Shown here piece after piece: positions 2,867 through 8,317 of a DNA stretch of 64,000 nt. The notes below the pieces were generated by a model that was given only the letters and a program-made list of their open reading frames with translations, was not told where the DNA came from and searched no databases. Both the position numbers and the translations under genes were made by a program. Source of the DNA: an uncultured Acidimicrobiaceae bacterium. Its GTDB lineage: Bacteria > Actinomycetota > Acidimicrobiia > Spongiisociales > UBA5794. Location: NCBI GenBank assembly GCA_947259365.1, contig CAMYMC010000008.1, positions 45,804 to 109,803 on the forward strand, written 5' to 3'. Numbering within the stretch: the stretch's first letter is position 1; each line of letters begins with the position of its first letter.

Positions 2867-4090
2867 TCACTCCACGGGATCGCGAACCAGCGGCTGGGTC
2901 ATGCACCGGCTTCCGCCGCGGCCCCGGCACAGCTCGGAGGCGTCGAGCTCGAGCACCTCGATGCCGGCGCGGCGGAGGCGGCGATTCGTCTCCTGGTTCC
3001 GCTCGTAGGCGACGACGACGCCCGGCTCGAGCGCCAGGGTGTTGTTGCCGTCGTCCCACTGCTCCCGGAGCCGTCCGATGGCGTCGCCTCCGGTGGGGAC
3101 GAAGTGGATCCCGTCCCGCCCGAGGGCGTCGGCGATCGCGGCTTCGAGGCCCGGGGATGGACGGACGGCCAGTCCACCGTCCCCGGCGGGGGTGATGACG
3201 TGAACGTCGACATCGTCGAGGAAGCCGGGGAACACGTTGAAACAGGCGCGATCCACCATCGTCAGCACGGTGTCGAGGTGCATCTGAGATCGGGCGTGGC
3301 GGAGGTGCACGACGATGACCCGGTCCACGGATCCGACGGCGAAGAGGCGCCTGGCGAGGATCTCGACGGCGGAGGGCGCGGTGCGCTCCCCGAGGCCCAC
3401 CATGAGGGTCCGCTCGTCGAGCACGAGCGCGTCGCCTCCTTCGATGCTCGCCGGGTACGCGTCCCCCTCGCCCGCCCCGAACCAGATGGGAAACCCGGCT
3501 GAGGCGAACGCATCGTGGTGGCGGTAGATCGTCTCCATGTACAGCGATTCGCGTGCCCGCGCCGGGGTGGCGAGGACGTTGATCGACAGGCCATCGTTGA
3601 TCCAGGCGGCGTTGTCCCGCATGAAGAGGAGGTTCGGCAACGGCCGGAGGACGTAGTGGAACCGATCGGCCTGGAGGTCGGCGAAGAGCGGATCGACGCC
3701 GAAGCGCTCGAGCTCGCGCTCGAGCAGCCCGCCCACGAGGACTTCGACGACGTCGGCGACGGGGACCTCGCCGAGCGCGGCGCCGAGCTGCTCCGAGACC
3801 CGGGGCCCGCACTGGGCCGGGCTGAACACCCGGGCGATGCACTCGGCACGCACCACGTCGTCGGCGAGGACCTCGGCGAGCAGCGTCTCGAAGTACAGGA
3901 CCTCGACGCCGCGCTCCTCCATCATGCCGACGAACGCGTCGTGCTCCTCCTGAGCCCGCTCGAGCCAGAGAAGGTCGTCGAAGAGGAGCGCGTCCTTGTT
4001 GTCCGGGGTGATCCGGGCGATCTCGGTCCCGGGCCGGTGGACCAGCACGGCGCGAAGCCTCCCGATCTCGCTGGAGACCCGGTACGTCAA
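2867..4090 (-). CDS. arcA: Arginine deiminase
   Basis: SEIGRLRAVLVHRPG, LLFDD, FMRD, IEGGD, MHLDT, EQWDDGNN, GRGGSRCMT; likely TTG start at 4090 overlapping the upstream stop. Confidence 0.93.
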   Translation of the reverse strand: MTYRVSSEIGRLRAVLVHRPGTEIARITPDNKDALLFDDLLWLERAQEEHDAFVGMMEERGVEVLYFETLLAEVLADDVVRAECIARVFSPAQCGPRVSEQLGAALGEVPVADVVEVLVGGLLERELERFGVDPLFADLQADRFHYVLRPLPNLLFMRDNAAWINDGLSINVLATPARARESLYMETIYRHHDAFASAGFPIWFGAGEGDAYPASIEGGDALVLDERTLMVGLGERTAPSAVEILARRLFAVGSVDRVIVVHLRHARSQMHLDTVLTMVDRACFNVFPGFLDDVDVHVITPAGDGGLAVRPSPGLEAAIADALGRDGIHFVPTGGDAIGRLREQWDDGNNTLALEPGVVVAYERNQETNRRLRRAGIEVLELDASELCRGRGGSRCMTQPLVRDPVE

Positions 4091-4857
4091 CCCGTCACGT
4101 CCGCGGCGACGCGGCGCAGCCGATGAACGAGTTCGACATCGCCTTCCACGGACAGCCGATCGAGCGGCCCCCGACCCCACAGATACAGCAGCACGTCCGA
4201 GGCGCCCCCGGTCAGGCGCGTACCGGGCTCGACCGCCTCGGTGAGCTCGAAACTCGGTTCAGCGGTGTAGCCGGCGCCACCGGCGGACGTGCCGGACCAG
4301 GTGATCTCTCGCAGCGTCCAGCGCGCCGGAACGTCAGTCGTGACGACGGCCAAGGCGCCCCGGCCGCGGTCAATGGTCGCCCACGGTGGCGCTCCGTCGA
4401 TCATGACCGCAAGGATCTCGTCGACACCGTCTACGGCGAGTTCAGGATCGACGGGCGCGGGCCGGCCGTGGGCGAGCTCGGCATCGACGCGATGGATCGC
4501 CGTCTCGTGTGCCATGCGCCGGTACCAGAACCCGACGGAGCGGTCTGCGGGGAACCAGGTCCACACCGGTGTTGTCGGGTCGGCCTCTCCGAGGGTTGCG
4601 ACGAGGCGGGATGCGCCCTCCTCGAACCAGGACACCAGGCCCGCATCCGGGGCCGCCGCGGGAGCAGGTGGGCGGTCCTCGATCCGCTCCCGCACGATGC
4701 GCTCCTTCTCGCGGTGCACGACGCCGGTGTGGGCAACGAGGTCGGCGACCGTCCACCCAGGACACGAGGGCACGGCGGCGTCGAGACCCAGCGCAGCCGC
4801 CGCACCGAGCGCGGCCGCGTCGGTGCGGATCGCGTCGAGATACCTCGCTGGTTCCAC
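4087..4857 (-). CDS. Maleylpyruvate isomerase family mycothiol-dependent enzyme (MDMPI)
   Basis: VPSCPGWTVADLVAH, RRMAHETAIHRVD, DGVDE, LWGR motifs. Confidence 0.9.
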   Translation of the reverse strand: MEPARYLDAIRTDAAALGAAAALGLDAAVPSCPGWTVADLVAHTGVVHREKERIVRERIEDRPPAPAAAPDAGLVSWFEEGASRLVATLGEADPTTPVWTWFPADRSVGFWYRRMAHETAIHRVDAELAHGRPAPVDPELAVDGVDEILAVMIDGAPPWATIDRGRGALAVVTTDVPARWTLREITWSGTSAGGAGYTAEPSFELTEAVEPGTRLTGGASDVLLYLWGRGPLDRLSVEGDVELVHRLRRVAADVTG

Positions 4858-4899
4858 CGGGCGACCCTACCGGAACCGGAGGTCGCCGGGATCCCGGAC

Positions 4900-5126
4900 G
4901 CGAAAGACCCGGAGATACTTCGGCGAAAGCCGCCGCCGCGAGAGGACCTGCTCGCGGATCTCCGGGTCTCGGTGGTCCGAGTTGGAGTCGCTACCTGACT
5001 CGCCGGGTGGCGAGGAGCAGCCTGACTCCTCGAATGTCGTTCAAGAACGGCCGCTCAGCGCTCGGCCACCTCCGGGGTCCTCGAAGAACTGTCATACATT
5101 GCTTGGACCACCTCCTTTCACCGGTA
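4900..5126 (-). ncRNA. Candidate structured small RNA containing a 14-codon ORF
   Basis: Extended -10 TGG-CAGAAT (5140-5132); long-range stem 5112-5105/4978-4971; 13-bp closing stem 4970-4958/4916-4904 enclosing two hairpins. Ends are approximate. Confidence 0.55.
5055..5099 (-). CDS. Candidate short peptide MYDSSSRTPEVAER
   Basis: ATG 11 nt downstream of GGAGG within GAAAGGAGGTGGTCCA; stop TGA at 5057-5055. Confidence 0.45.
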   Translation of the reverse strand: MYDSSSRTPEVAER

Positions 5127-5230
5127 ACGGGATTCTGCCACAACTCCACCCCGTCGGTCGCGAAATCGCGCCGCCCCGATCCGGCCTCCGGCGGAGCCCG
5201 GCAGGCCGCGGTCTGGTTGAATCGCACCCC

Positions 5231-5719
5231 ATGGACGAGATCGAGCGACGGGTCGTCGCCGCACTCGACGCGACGGGAGCCGCCTACGAGCTCATCGAGT
5301 GCGACCCCGACCTCGCCGACACAGCCGCGTTCTGCGCCCACTACGGGTACCCCGAGTCGCAGTCGGCGAACACGATCGTCGTCGCATCGCGCAAACCCGA
5401 GGGCCACAACGCCGCCTGCGTCGTGCTGGCGACGACCCGGCTCGACGTCAACAAGCGGGTCCGCACCAGGCTCGGCGTTCGCAAGGTGTCCTTCGCCTCG
5501 CCGGAGATGAGCGCCGAGCTCACCGGCATGCTCATGGGGGGCGTCACCGCATTCGGGTTGCCGGCCGACCTCCCCCTGTGGGTCGACGCCAGGGTCATGG
5601 AGCCGGATTGGATCATCCTCGGCGGTGGAAGCAGGTCGCTGAAACTCAAGCTCGACCCCGAGGCGCTGCTCACCGTGGGCGGCGAAGTCGTCGAAGATCT
5701 CGCCGTCCCACTCGCATGA
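5231..5719 (+). CDS. YbaK/ProXp aminoacyl-tRNA deacylase family protein
   Basis: ADTAAFC, SANTIVV, SFAS, TGM-x2-GGVT-x-FG, GGGSR motifs. Confidence 0.88.
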   Translation: MDEIERRVVAALDATGAAYELIECDPDLADTAAFCAHYGYPESQSANTIVVASRKPEGHNAACVVLATTRLDVNKRVRTRLGVRKVSFASPEMSAELTGMLMGGVTAFGLPADLPLWVDARVMEPDWIILGGGSRSLKLKLDPEALLTVGGEVVEDLAVPLA

Positions 5720-5779
5720 GCACGGTCGTGACCCGTCGCAGCGAGCCGGTTGGCGGGCGGTGTCGCAGGTGACGTGCCG

Positions 5780-6583
5780 ATGACGTCCGAGTTCGACCGG
5801 GACACCGCTCTCGAGCGCACCGGGTCGGGCACGTGGCACGGCGAGATCGCCGACGGCTGGGATGTTTCCGGTACTCCGAACGGCGGGTACGTGATGTCCC
5901 TCATGCTGGCCGGGATGCTCGCCGAGGTCCCTCAGCCGGATCCTCTCACGACGACGGCACACTTCCTCGCCCGTCCGCACCCCGGTCCCATCGGGCTCCA
6001 CACCCAGGTGGCCAAGCTCGGGCGGCGTTACTCGACGGTGCGTGGCGACCTCCTCCAGGCCGACCGCATCGTCGCCACGGCTCTCGTCATGGCCGCCGAC
6101 CTCGGCGACGCCGGCGATGAGGTCATGGTCGACATCCCGCCGCCCGAGTTCCCCCCGCCGGGCGAATGCCCGCGCGGCACGAGGACCGGTGTCTCCGCCG
6201 CCGTGGCCGTCCTCGACAGGGCCGAGATCCGGATCGCTCCCCACCTCGCCGGGTTTGCCCTCGGATCGCCCACCGGAGAGGCCGTTGTCGGCGGGTGGAT
6301 CCGCTTTGGAGACGGCCGCCCCATCGACTCGCGATCGCTGACGTTCTTCGCGGACGCCTTCGCCCCGCCCGTCCTCAACCTGGGAATGGCGTTTGCGTGG
6401 GTGCCGACGCTCGAGCTGACCGTCCACGTCCGCCGGCGACCGGACACCGAATGGCTGGCGGCGCGGTTCTCTTCACACGTCCTCAGCCACGGGCACCTCG
6501 AGGAGGACGGCGTCATCTGGGACGAAGACGGGAACGTGCTCGCCCACTCCCGCCAGATCTCGATCCTCCCCGATCCCGGCTGA
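5780..6583 (+). CDS. Thioesterase family protein (double hotdog, TesB-like)
   Basis: W-x4-PNGGY, FFADAF, VPTLELTVH, EEDG-x-IWD, SRQ motifs. Confidence 0.9.
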   Translation: MTSEFDRDTALERTGSGTWHGEIADGWDVSGTPNGGYVMSLMLAGMLAEVPQPDPLTTTAHFLARPHPGPIGLHTQVAKLGRRYSTVRGDLLQADRIVATALVMAADLGDAGDEVMVDIPPPEFPPPGECPRGTRTGVSAAVAVLDRAEIRIAPHLAGFALGSPTGEAVVGGWIRFGDGRPIDSRSLTFFADAFAPPVLNLGMAFAWVPTLELTVHVRRRPDTEWLAARFSSHVLSHGHLEEDGVIWDEDGNVLAHSRQISILPDPG

Positions 6584-6627
6584 CGGTCCTGGCAGGCTCA
6601 CTGCACCACGAACGAGTGCACCACCAA

Positions 6628-6655
6628 CAACGCCCCGCCGGACGGCGGGGCGTTG
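6628..6655. terminator. GC-rich hairpin between convergent thioesterase and ssrA
   Basis: Inverted repeat CAACGCCCCGCCG-GA-CGGCGGGGCGTTG just downstream of the tmRNA 3' end. Confidence 0.75.
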
Positions 6656-6660
6656 CGAAG

Positions 6661-7010
6661 TGGAGGTGCGGGGACTCGAACCCCGGTCCCGCGAGGCTTC
6701 AGCGACGGCATCTCCGAGCGCAGTCAACAGCTGAGTGTCAGGCCGTGAGTCGCTGCTGACCCTCTCCTCTCGGCCTTATCCGGAGAAGATCTTGACCGGG
6801 GTCTCCGGCGACCCCCCGGTTGCATCCTGTATTGCGTTGCCCCGGTCCGGCGAGACAGGAACCCCCCGGTGGGACAGGCCGCTATTGGTTAGGCGGCCAG
6901 TGCCATATCGTTGTCGGCACGTATGTGTTTCCCGGCTCTTTAACGAGGACTCCGGGGACCTCGGCTCGCTTCCGACGCCTCAACCCTCACGGTCGAAACC
7001 GATCACCCCC
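6661..7010 (-). ncRNA. ssrA: tmRNA; tag (A)ADNDMALAA* at 6918-6889
   Basis: 5' GGGGGUGAUCGGUUUCGAC; 3' GGGGUUCGAGUCCCCGCACCUCCA with T-arm and encoded CCA; tag ORF ending LAA*; smpB nearby. Confidence 0.97.
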
Positions 7011-7180
7011 TTGCGGGCAAGTACATGTATACCCGCCGAACGATACCAAAGGGTCGGGGTGGGCTCACCGAAAGTCGCGAAACCTGTTGCTATCGGGAGC
7101 ACACCACGGCTACGCTCGAGCCCCTATTCGTGGCGGAGTAGAAGGCACACGGCTCTTCTCGAGGGGCGGAAGAGCATTGG

Positions 7181-8317
7181 ATGGGAGGCATCCAGGTGCA
7201 CGTGCGTCGCCCCCGGGCTTACTACGCCGCCGGACTCTTCAACGAGGCCGAACGGTCGTTCAATCTTCGCGTCAAGGCCATGCTCGACGACCTGGGCTAC
7301 GAGACGTGGTTCCCCCAGGAGGACGCCGGGTTCCTCGAGGACTACATGGACCAGGGGATGACCCTGGCCCAGGCGCGTCACGAGATCTTCCGGATGAACC
7401 GCGATGCGGTCCGCCGCGCCGACGTGCTCATCTTCAACCTCGACGGGCGCGTGCCCGACGAGGGCGCCTGCGTCGAAGCCGGCATCGCCTACGGCAGCGG
7501 GATCCGCTGCATCGGTCTCCAGACCGACTTCAGGGCCGTCGAGCCGGGCGGGAACAACCTCATGCTGGACGGCATCCTGAACTACGAACTCGCCAACGAC
7601 ATCGACGCCCTCCGCGACATGCTCGACGCGATCCGGGTCGAGATCGATCTCACCACCGACGAGCCCCTGGTCACGATCGAGGACCGGGCCCGGCCGTACG
7701 TCGTCGTCGCCGGCCCGCTCGGCGTCGGCAAGACCGCCCTCATCGAGCTGCTCGCGGCCCATGGAGACTGGGACGTACTCGGTGAGCCGGTCGACGAGAA
7801 CCCGTACCTCGGGGACGTGTACACGAACCTGACCGACCTCGGCTACCGGATGCAGACCTATTACCTCGGTCGGAGGGCGGCGCAGCACCTCGCCGCGGCG
7901 CGCCGGACCCGGCCGACGCTCCAAGAGCGGAGCATCCTCGAGGACGCCCTCGTCTTCTTCCCGGCCTACCGGGACGCCGGCGCCTACGACGACAACGATC
8001 TCGCGACGCTCATGTCGCTCTACGACGCCGCCCGGGCGGCACTGCCGCTCCCGGACCTCATCGTCGCCGTCACCGCCCCGTTCGACACATGCGTGATGCG
8101 CATCAAGGAGCGGGACCGGGTCGCCGAGCGCGAAATCGATCAGGGCTGGCTGCGCACTGTCTACGATCGCTACGAGCGCTGGCTGGCCGCACCGACGGAG
8201 ATCCCGATGGTGACCATCGATTCCGAGCTTCTCGACTACGTCAACCACCCCGAGGACCGCGCCGCGGCCGTCGGCATCGTGCGGCGTGCTCTGGAGAACG
8301 CCGGCGCCGTCGTGTGA
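7181..8317 (+). CDS. Fusion of nucleoside 2'-deoxyribosyltransferase-like domain and deoxynucleoside kinase
   Basis: N-terminal YYAAGLF, FPQE, DEGACVEAG, NLM; C-terminal GPLGVGKT, EPVDENPYL, ERSILED, PDL, RIKERDR. Confidence 0.85.
   Translation: MGGIQVHVRRPRAYYAAGLFNEAERSFNLRVKAMLDDLGYETWFPQEDAGFLEDYMDQGMTLAQARHEIFRMNRDAVRRADVLIFNLDGRVPDEGACVEAGIAYGSGIRCIGLQTDFRAVEPGGNNLMLDGILNYELANDIDALRDMLDAIRVEIDLTTDEPLVTIEDRARPYVVVAGPLGVGKTALIELLAAHGDWDVLGEPVDENPYLGDVYTNLTDLGYRMQTYYLGRRAAQHLAAARRTRPTLQERSILEDALVFFPAYRDAGAYDDNDLATLMSLYDAARAALPLPDLIVAVTAPFDTCVMRIKERDRVAEREIDQGWLRTVYDRYERWLAAPTEIPMVTIDSELLDYVNHPEDRAAAVGIVRRALENAGAVV

Follow-up and report, generated by a model that had tools for sequence, protein, structure and literature searches.

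A divergent Ms_IGR-5 homologue from an uncultured Acidimicrobiaceae bacterium as a putative ribosome-recruiting, translated small RNA

Which RNA, if any, is encoded in the 373-nt intergenic gap (4858-5230) between two divergent genes in a 64,000-nt stretch of DNA from an uncultured Acidimicrobiaceae bacterium (contig CAMYMC010000008.1), and what would it do? The whole stretch is called the window below. The gap houses an element on the minus strand (about 4896-5140) with a predicted RNA of about 230 nt. A previous reading made from the letters of the DNA (the sequence-only reading) had described an extended -10 box, an unusually long complement of the 16S ribosomal RNA (rRNA) 3′ end, a small open reading frame (ORF) and a folded 3′ domain at this place, and all features that it listed are present at the minus-strand coordinates it gave. 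As judged from comparative analysis, the element is almost certainly a divergent homologue of Ms_IGR-5 (Rfam family RF02471). With a probability of roughly 0.6, we regard it as a ribosome-recruiting, translated small RNA (sRNA) whose translation would unfold its own structure, i.e., as a switch coupling the activity or stability of the RNA to ribosome availability.

Family membership and distribution

The sequence-only reading had recognized no known family. The comparison with Rfam agreed with this insofar as no match at gathering level was found at the element (within the window only the transfer-messenger RNA (tmRNA) gene reached that level), but a weak match to RF02471 at 4982-5125 on the minus strand (17.2 bits, E = 0.13), the sole Rfam family touching the element, pointed to a known family. 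The claim of novelty finally failed on reciprocal model matches. A covariance model, R1, was built from an alignment of 30 close relatives of the window sequence (A1), and R1 and RF02471 recognized the same coordinates in L031 (RF02471 50.9 bits, R1 61.1 bits), in L092 from Mycobacterium sp. (176.5 and 59.2 bits), in L096 from Micromonospora (98.5 and 78.2 bits), and in L145 (51.6 and 83.5 bits), L158 (49.6 and 34.8 bits) and L130 (47.7 and 50.5 bits). Full-length matches of RF02471 (E-values from 1e-7 to 1e-3) also fell on the orthologous loci of the genomes G021, G009, G008 and G013. Furthermore, alignment to the RF02471 consensus as well as A1 and the larger alignment A3 described below showed a common 5′ block, GGAAGGAGGUGGUCC ... 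GGAC ... GAGGUGGC. Since R1 and RF02471 cross-match the same loci, the element represents a divergent family member that is missed by the curated gathering threshold of 45 bits, which is an operational cut-off rather than a biological feature. Other sub-threshold Rfam matches (ncrMT1302, M23, CC2171 and others) were on the wrong strand or partial and were treated as chance.

Ms_IGR-5 resembles the element in being stand-alone and intergenic and in its overall layout. The window copy has a larger P3 apex and a larger 3′ domain, and the Rfam consensus structure lacks the P1, pseudoknot and P3 architecture found here (see below). According to the accessible parts of the sources, Ms_IGR-5 is located between MSMEG_5794 and MSMEG_5795 in Mycobacterium smegmatis, from which it was first reported and where it is "validated but yet uncharacterized" and capped with nicotinamide adenine dinucleotide (bioRxiv 10.1101/2021.12.14.472595), and it was detected again in cold-stress transcriptomes (PMC10454040). 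In the same partial sources, the homologue of S. lividans is listed as a discrete sRNA validated by RNA-seq (PMC8079986, Table 2), that of S. avermitilis as an sRNA transcription unit (PMC8780764), and MS_IGR-5 homologues of M. abscessus and M. smegmatis are credited with "significant ribosomal reads" (PMC4974804). In the accessible portions of the literature, no functional study of Ms_IGR-5 was found.

Homologues of the element were abundant. A DNA search gave matches in 56 of 61 genomes of the same order, precisely over 4894-5143. R1 found one copy in the element's own genome and matched 64 of 151 genomes sampled evenly across the phylum (E ≤ 0.001), including all searched genomes of the families f41 (10/10) and f48 (10/10) and none of those of f51 (0/10), f52 (0/7) and f53 (0/9). 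RF02471, applied to 151 genomes of the class, gave matches with E ≤ 0.01 in 41 and exceeded its own cut-off in a single one; the two samples are separate, and the family is far wider than the Rfam model detects. An exact-pattern scan with one genome per species yielded at least 120 stretches, and among the matches listed R1 confirmed 67 of 80 loci. Named records confirmed by R1 include Mycobacterium, Micromonospora, Nocardioides, Nocardiopsis, Cellulomonas and Kineococcus, and further ones belong to Acidimicrobiia and Thermoleophilia/Solirubrobacterales. The 67 pattern-derived loci were combined with 82 other loci to a set of 149 sequences. Several genomes in these data sets are unpublished: G050 (locus L027) is part of A1 and hence of R1 and of all counts over 56 loci; G240 (L080), G307 (L081), G212 (L085) and G196 (L086) are part of A3 and of the 149-sequence counts; G039, G278 and G272 enter only the genome tallies, i.e., the 61-genome search and the 151-genome phylum sample.

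The same layout was also met in records labeled as non-actinobacterial, in the form of AAGGAGGTGGTCC, a start about 8-13 nt further on, an ORF of 12-19 codons and a terminal E-V-x-x-x-stop. It was seen in the R1 matches L145, L130, L158, L144, L114 and L140 and by eye in L138, L097, L103, L122, L123, L126 and L156; RF02471 was above its cut-off at L145, L158 and L130. The labels comprise Acidobacteriota (Polarisedimenticolia, Blastocatellia, Terriglobales, Bryobacterales), Syntrophobacter, Planctomycetota and the isolate Leptospira jelokensis. It is possible that the family extends over several phyla; alternatively, contigs of metagenome-assembled genomes (MAGs) could in part be mis-binned.

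Reading frame, 16S rRNA complement and RNA fold

The small ORF proves to be conserved as a reading frame. In all 56 non-redundant loci, a stop codon is located exactly five codons past an invariant GAG, and the same holds true for 147 of the 149 sequences (TAG 100, TGA 31, TAA 16, never TGG) or, without the five unpublished loci, for 142 of 144. Start and stop codons were outside the pattern by which the 67 loci had been selected. Within the 149 sequences, frame 0 contains no stop in 1003 codons, compared to 18 in 1062 and 174 in 1094 codons of the other two frames. An in-frame ATG, GTG or TTG lies 5-12 nt after GGAGG in 50 of the 56 loci, compared to 0 and 4 in the other frames. ORF lengths are mostly 12-15 codons in the larger set, in which 125 sequences have a canonical in-frame start (TTG 56, ATG 55, GTG 14) and 24 a near-cognate one (CTG 17, ATC 5, ATA 1, ATT 1), three of the latter being distant from the SD. 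Such a start-codon usage is unusual for high-GC bacteria. The combination of weak starts with a maximal Shine-Dalgarno (SD) sequence suggests a deliberately slow start-codon acceptance; a TTG/CTG start swap between L086 and L080 rests wholly on unpublished genomes. The start region is AU-rich, with 39% GC compared to 64% for the whole element (56 loci).

The encoded peptide drifts, although a C-terminal pattern [R/G/W]-T-x-E-V-x-x-[R/S/C] recurs. Apart from E-V, no residue is invariant, and these two are encoded by the fixed GAGGUG, which is at the same time a strand of an RNA helix. The other residues shift whenever the RNA pairs covary, as seen for codon 9 (P/L/R), codon 12 (A/V/T/P/R) and codon 13 (E/G/D/K), and in A1 synonymous sites are fixed as much as non-synonymous ones. 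In L097, from a MAG labeled as Planctomycetota, a 1-nt deletion follows GAGGTG; this locus has a GTG start in the shifted frame and thereby keeps a 13-codon ORF to TGA with different C-terminal residues. Because frame and stop are fixed while the peptide drifts, we conclude from these comparisons that the translation of the frame, and not the peptide sequence, is under selection. We consider it probable that ribosomes are recruited and that the ORF is indeed translated, footprints on homologues alone being no proof of peptide synthesis and translation of the window ORF a comparative inference. A second SD-like sequence, GGAGGUGG, is present within the ORF; its end is separated by 8 nt from the last sense codon and by 11 nt from the stop, a spacing like that between SD and start. 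Here the 16S tail of a terminating ribosome could pair anew.

The extended SD proposed in the sequence-only reading exists as a 15-nt complement of the 16S rRNA tail (5119-5105). It is nearly invariant in A1 and A3, preceded by a purine in 141 of the 149 homologues, and left unpaired by the covariation-supported fold; within the 83 rows of A3, no covariation-supported partner for 5119-5105 was found. The element's own assembly holds no small-subunit rRNA, and the 16S tail of the window organism was deduced from relatives: in the three related genomes tested (G026, G008, G170), the 16S gene has exact GGATCACCTCCTTTC at its 3′ end. When five genomes were scanned for the 15-mer with at most one mismatch, the element was the only other site in four of them. 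In the fifth, G022, one extra near-match was seen (GGCTCACCTCCTTTC, G022:C3:1825916-1825930), which is neither a 16S end nor the element. The computed energy of the SD:16S duplex is -29.1 kcal/mol, compared to -8.7 kcal/mol for the GGAGG core, and the SD starts 6 nt from the predicted 5′ end of the RNA. At the single G:U position, G24 is changed to A in L006, L039, L043 and L090, which improves the 16S pairing and breaks the internal alternatives.

With respect to these alternatives, the sequence-only reading had proposed that part of the SD can pair with GGACCACC (4978-4971). This pairing receives no support from covariation, and the partner strand tracks the second GGUGG and not the SD: 91.3% of the cells are paired without any compensatory change, a value equal to that of the shuffles, and the pairing is broken in 26 cells at 27:249 and in 16 at 25:251. 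In the window RNA, the single-sequence minimum free energy fold, which contains the SD:GGACCACC pairing, was calculated to -113.2 kcal/mol, and the consensus nested fold to -101.8 kcal/mol plus about -11.6 kcal/mol for the pseudoknot. Since the two folds are close in energy, the pairing is possible as an alternative state, and thus as a switch, in this order only. A further candidate, the RNAalifold helix P2 between the 3′ half of the SD (GG.UGGUCC) and GGACC.CC, was rejected: 94.6% of the cells are paired in the 83 rows without compensatory change, again equal to shuffles, and where the GGAC core is changed to CGAC (L073, L074, L091), this change is matched in the hairpin loop but not in the SD.

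The RNA as a whole is strongly structured; its single-sequence fold has a z-score of -3.5, and none of 200 shuffles folds as well. Invariant blocks alternate in A1 with variable stems rich in compensatory changes. For the nested helices plus the pseudoknot, 96.9% of 1507 cells are paired in A1, compared to 36-44% with slid partners, and 20 of 51 pairs show compensatory changes. The wider alignment A3 is model-based and has 83 rows, i.e., 82 loci and one spurious row from the opposite strand; it supersedes the MAFFT alignment A2, in which the 3′ half of seven mycobacterial-type sequences was misaligned. In A3, 94.4% of 3952 cells are paired, compared to 32-46% with slid partners, and 44 of 51 pairs are compensatory. 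In both alignments, none of 500 shuffles reached the observed values. Among the helices, the short P1 shows the pairs AU 40, GC 24, CG 15 and UA 3 at 10:62 and CG 61, AU 9 and GC 9 at 9:63 (A3). It closes an unpaired, AU-rich loop that extends over the 16S complement and the start codon and includes the first six codons. In P3, compensatory changes occur in 7 of 10 pairs of P3a and in all five of P3b (A3). The 3′ three-way junction with its 13-bp stem and two hairpins is present as the sequence-only reading had drawn it, with compensatory changes in all its pairs. An unpaired internal-loop motif of P3, GA(A/C)UCCAA, contains CUCC or UCC, for which GGAG of the SD or some other G-rich sequence could be a partner.

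The pseudoknot suggested earlier between GGTCCT(C), 4948-4943(4942), and (G)AGGACC, 5082-5076, is likewise backed by compensatory changes. It lies outside the model on which A3 is based, yet 91.5% of its cells are paired on A3. The pairs are GC 78 and CG 3 at 54:291; AU 24, GC 4, UA 3, UG 2, CG 1 and GU 1 at 53:292, with 11 unpaired cells and 37 gaps; and CG 37, UG 19, UA 5 and GC 1 at 60:287, with 17 unpaired cells. The unpaired cells at 55:290 and 56:289 are those of five f41 sequences with a one-column shift, which rests mostly on unpublished genomes. A count with an independent script over 56 loci found 304 of 336 pseudoknot cells to pair, a value reached by none of 10,000 shuffles; position 51:218 is paired in 36 of 56 loci and in 35 of the 42 in which the base lies in the loop. 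From the comparative data we regard the pseudoknot as real. The coordinates of all features are collected in Table 1.

Table 1. Features of the element and its surroundings in the window
Feature	Position	Strand	Evidence or remark
Extended -10 box TGG-CAGAAT	5140-5132	-	sequence; TGTGGCAnAAT kept in relatives
P1 5′ strand CCGG, extreme 5′ end of the RNA	5121-5124	-	pairs with 5075-5072
16S-tail complement GAAAGGAGGTGGTCC(A)	5119-5105(5104)	-	sequence
15-nt complement of the 16S rRNA 3′ tail, GAAAGGAGGUGGUCC, one G:U; putative SD	5105-5119	-	unpaired in covariation-supported fold
14-codon ORF plus stop, encoding MYDSSSRTPEVAER*	5055-5099 (ATG 5099-5097, TGA 5057-5055)	-	sequence, comparison
B′ AGGACC, pseudoknot 5′ strand, ORF codons 7-8	5076-5081	-	pairs with loop 4948-4943
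P1 3′ strand CCGG	5072-5075	-	4 bp with 5124-5121
Second SD-like GGAGGUGG inside ORF	5066-5073	-	GAGGUG invariant across homologues
P3a and P3b 5′ strands (GGUGGCCGAG, CGCUG), last five codons and stop	5056-5070	-	pair with 4981-4971 and 4993-4989
Variable apical hairpins of domain P3	4994-5054	-	length and sequence vary; hairpins in constrained fold
P3b 3′ strand UAGCG, loop motif, P3a 3′ strand CUCGGACCACC (including GGACCACC, 4978-4971)	4971-4993	-	alignments
Unpaired internal-loop motif (G)ACUCCAA; GAAUCC(A)A in other clades	4982-4988	-	conserved in alignments
3′ domain, three-way junction	4904-4970	-	P4 (13 bp), P4a, P4b
P4, 13 bp	4970-4958 with 4916-4904	-	all 13 pairs with compensatory changes in A3
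P4a hairpin; loop 4950-4943 holds GGUCCU, pseudoknot 3′ strand	4957-4936	-	all 7 pairs compensatory in A3
P4b hairpin	4935-4921	-	all 6 pairs with compensatory changes in A3
Pyrimidine/U-containing tail after P4	4896-4903	-	U-rich tails follow P4 in homologues
MDMPI-family gene, downstream, outside element	4087-4857	-	Pfam MDMPI_N and MDMPI_C
YbaK-like aminoacyl-tRNA editing domain gene, divergent upstream, outside element	5231-5719	+	PF04073, E = 5.9e-19

Transcript and genomic neighbors

A scan with simple consensus sequences gave no sigma-70 promoter site and no terminator at the element; the assignment of promoter and 3′ end therefore rests on conservation and on the homologues. A -10-like hexamer [TC]ANNNT occurs within 25 nt upstream in 123 of the 149 homologues, mostly 12-14 nt before AAAGGAGG. 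The transcription start is predicted from the alignments at a conserved A (5125), and the transcript of M. smegmatis IGR-5 likewise begins with A, as stated in the part of the source available (bioRxiv 10.1101/2021.12.14.472595). The 3′ end is probably formed at the tail following P4 (4896-4903), in which case the branched P4 would serve as terminator. In public sequencing data, the runs with the window sequence were DNA metagenomes whose contigs held only small shares; no RNA run was among them.

The sequence-only reading had considered the RNA a stand-alone transcript rather than a leader. This view is strengthened by the positionally conserved -10 box and by the variable downstream gene. 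The ORF 3′ of the element in the 56 loci encodes arginine deiminase (5 loci), an MDMPI protein (5), a periplasmic binding protein (4), a GNAT protein (3) or others, and it is convergent in at least 14 of them; upstream, a divergent phosphofructokinase gene is a frequent neighbor (10 loci). A conserved, regulated same-strand gene downstream, as expected for a cis-acting leader, was not found among these loci. The TAGGGT box (4869-4864) assigned earlier to the MDMPI gene of the window is present 6 nt before its GTG start, and this geometry is that of a leaderless mRNA, which the MDMPI transcript probably is.

Several further observations concern the surroundings. The MDMPI gene is followed by an arginine deiminase gene (PF02274, E = 4.9e-108) at 2867-4180 on the minus strand, and in five relatives such a gene stands directly after the sRNA. 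A tmRNA gene is located at 6658-7010 on the minus strand, 1.5 kb from the element (Rfam 152.5 bits; ARAGORN tag peptide ADNDMALAA), and in L024 the SmpB gene is the upstream neighbor of the element. The proximity to tmRNA and SmpB probably reflects just local gene order. In the Bryobacter MAG locus L126, an RNase P RNA gene (3880-4266, plus strand) lies about 150 nt from the look-alike element on the opposite strand.

Proposed mode of action, alternatives and related systems

In the comparative structure, three domains are held together by the pseudoknot, and the path of a ribosome through the ORF meets the pseudoknot strand at codon 7, then the P1 3′ strand and finally P3, within which the fixed stop is located. 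We propose that the exposed super-SD close to the 5′ end captures a 30S subunit very tightly and that the open loop can accommodate the initiating ribosome, whose entry channel would then face the pseudoknot. In every round of translation, the pseudoknot, P1 and P3 would have to be melted, and termination at the fixed stop would leave the P3 3′ strand (GA(A/C)UCCAA...CACC) and the 3′ junction free and untranslated. The RNA could thus toggle between a closed, ribosome-free and an open, ribosome-loaded form, the latter of which could pair with targets, re-close the SD, change RNA stability or release the ribosome. We think that the act of translation and not the peptide is selected. That the translation-driven remodeling is the functional point of the RNA is a more tentative proposition, to which we would give slightly less than an even chance.

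A number of points weigh against this interpretation. With 17.2 bits, the window copy falls below the RF02471 threshold, and its own genome gave no RF02471 match at E ≤ 0.01. The evidence for expression comes from homologues, the transcript of the window copy being predicted. A3 was fitted to a model, which favors the nested helices, and the sequences are related rather than independent, so that the shuffle counts overstate significance. Moreover, 67 of the 149 homologues were picked by a pattern requiring the SD and GAGGTG, and in these the SD is conserved by construction. The fixed stop is absent in two sequences, L115, which is cut at the locus end, and L135, a weak 26-bit match; three (L132, L141, L146) have no start near the SD in the script count, and the starts are often weak (TTG 56, CTG 17, ATC/ATA/ATT 7 of 149). 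Translation may therefore be inefficient, or absent in some lineages. A 15-bp SD duplex is expected to hinder ribosome escape, which fits a decoy as well as a switch. Finally, the output of the switch is a proposal, whereas the computed results cover sequence and fold.

The sequence-only reading had named a 30S sponge, a translation-coupled switch and a small-peptide gene as options. The choice among them lies beyond computation, the peptide option being the weakest. A ribosome decoy, i.e., an mRNA mimic which holds 30S or 70S particles by masking the anti-SD tail (a sponge, hibernation- or 6S-like) and in which the ORF at most lets the ribosome escape, would account for the nearly invariant, unpaired 16S complement with its very stable duplex, for a pseudoknot beginning at codon 7, the leading edge of an initiating ribosome, for the common weak starts and for the broad, housekeeping-like spread over 64 of the 151 phylum-wide genomes. 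Ribosomes do reach the stop, however, to judge from the strictly conserved open frame and stop position, and stoichiometric sequestration would require copy numbers near those of ribosomes; we therefore consider a decoy unlikely. In a bolder version of this idea, Ms_IGR-5 would play the part for the ribosome that 6S RNA plays for RNA polymerase, as a housekeeping mRNA mimic that parks ribosomes. Parking would occur by pairing with the full-length 16S 3′ tail, with the pseudoknot blocking the entry channel and weak starts slowing initiation; the ribosome would free itself by translating 12-15 codons to the fixed stop and thereby unfolding the RNA, and the second GGAGGUGG, with its start-like spacing before the stop, would take over the 16S tail at termination. 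Such an RNA would occur throughout Actinomycetota and, as it appears, beyond them in Acidobacteriota, Leptospira and other phyla. We give this version a small chance.

The remaining explanations assign translation a minor role or a different purpose. If the element were a trans-acting base-pairing sRNA, the SD would act only as a ribosome-bound 5′ stabilizer, similar to STAB-SD sequences, and the ORF would be a by-product. The position of the SD 6 nt from the predicted 5′ end and the conserved unpaired C-rich motifs, GA(A/C)UCCAA and, if outside the pseudoknot, the GGUCC loop, would suit such a function, and M. smegmatis IGR-5 was reportedly recovered by Hfq pull-down, going by the title of a study of Li et al. 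from 2013. A stabilizer, however, needs neither a start nor an open frame nor a fixed stop, all three of which are conserved; the GGUCC loop covaries with the ORF, and no target is known. We consider this explanation improbable. That the element is a gene for a functional peptide of 12-15 residues, with the RNA structure merely tuning expression, would agree with the conserved frame, start and stop and with the recurring C-terminal pattern. We hold it to be even harder to sustain, as E-V alone is invariant and encoded by the GAGGUG helix strand, the other residues change along with the covarying RNA pairs, synonymous sites are fixed like non-synonymous ones, and the ORF of L097 is retained in a shifted frame but with another C-terminal end; in addition, about 150 nt of covarying 3′ structure go far beyond the need of a peptide mRNA. 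The least probable explanation, with hardly any weight in our judgement, is a cis-acting leader or attenuator of the MDMPI gene. An ORF, alternative pairings and a terminator-like P4 upstream of a same-strand gene invite this idea, and 5 of the 56 loci have an MDMPI gene after the element. It is contradicted by synteny, as the downstream gene differs among close relatives and is often convergent, by the TAGGGT box of the MDMPI gene itself, and by the mapping of homologues as sRNA transcription units in the part of the literature at hand (PMC8780764).

For years, the family has been listed in Rfam as an uncharacterized "Actinobacteria sRNA". What is conserved most in it is a complement of the 16S 3′ tail of the greatest possible length, and its reading frame is kept open and closed at one exact codon by selection, although the peptide drifts. 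An RNA selected for translation itself, with a pseudoknot tying the ORF to the 3′ domain, would be unusual and makes ribosome-RNA regulation directly accessible to tests in a phylum in which leaderless mRNAs abound. The gene is missed by genome annotation in Microbacteriaceae and related groups, and most copies in the order of the window organism are below the Rfam cut-off; the alignment and structure presented here can be used to rebuild the Rfam model.

The element shares properties with several known systems. In leader-peptide attenuators and attenuator-derived sRNAs such as rnTrpL, an ORF of about 14 codons is present whose translation decides on RNA pairings, according to the part of the source available (PMC6614838); the element differs in having neither a conserved regulated downstream gene nor regulatory codon runs. 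Like the element, tmRNA belongs to the structured housekeeping RNAs and combines pseudoknots with a short ORF that has a defined stop for the ribosome. In contrast to tmRNA, the element has no tRNA-like domain, and entry of the ribosome would depend on the SD rather than on the A site; neither ARAGORN (4500-7200) nor Rfam detected a tmRNA at the element, the only one being located at 6658/6660-7010. In 6S RNA with its release driven by product RNA (pRNA), a substrate mimic binds a machine and is remodeled by the synthesis of a short product, which makes it an analogy for the element; 6S RNA targets RNA polymerase, and sequestration by the element is an analogy only. The dual-function sRNAs SgrS/SgrT, RNAIII/delta-haemolysin and SR1/SR1P are likewise stand-alone and structured, and they are equipped with a small ORF, which is translated in these sRNAs and putatively in the element. 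Compared to these, the ORF of the element is shorter and overlaps core helices and the pseudoknot, its peptide is poorly conserved, its SD is complementary to the 16S tail over the full 15 nt, and no base-pairing target is known. With STAB-SD 5′ stabilizers, e.g., that of cryIIIA, the element has in common a perfect SD of the GAAAGGAGG type near the 5′ end (predicted for the element), by which a 30S subunit might be retained and the RNA shielded. STAB-SD sequences need neither a start codon nor an ORF and are located on long mRNAs of Gram-positive bacteria, whereas the element keeps its start, open frame and fixed stop, and the RNA constitutes the whole gene.

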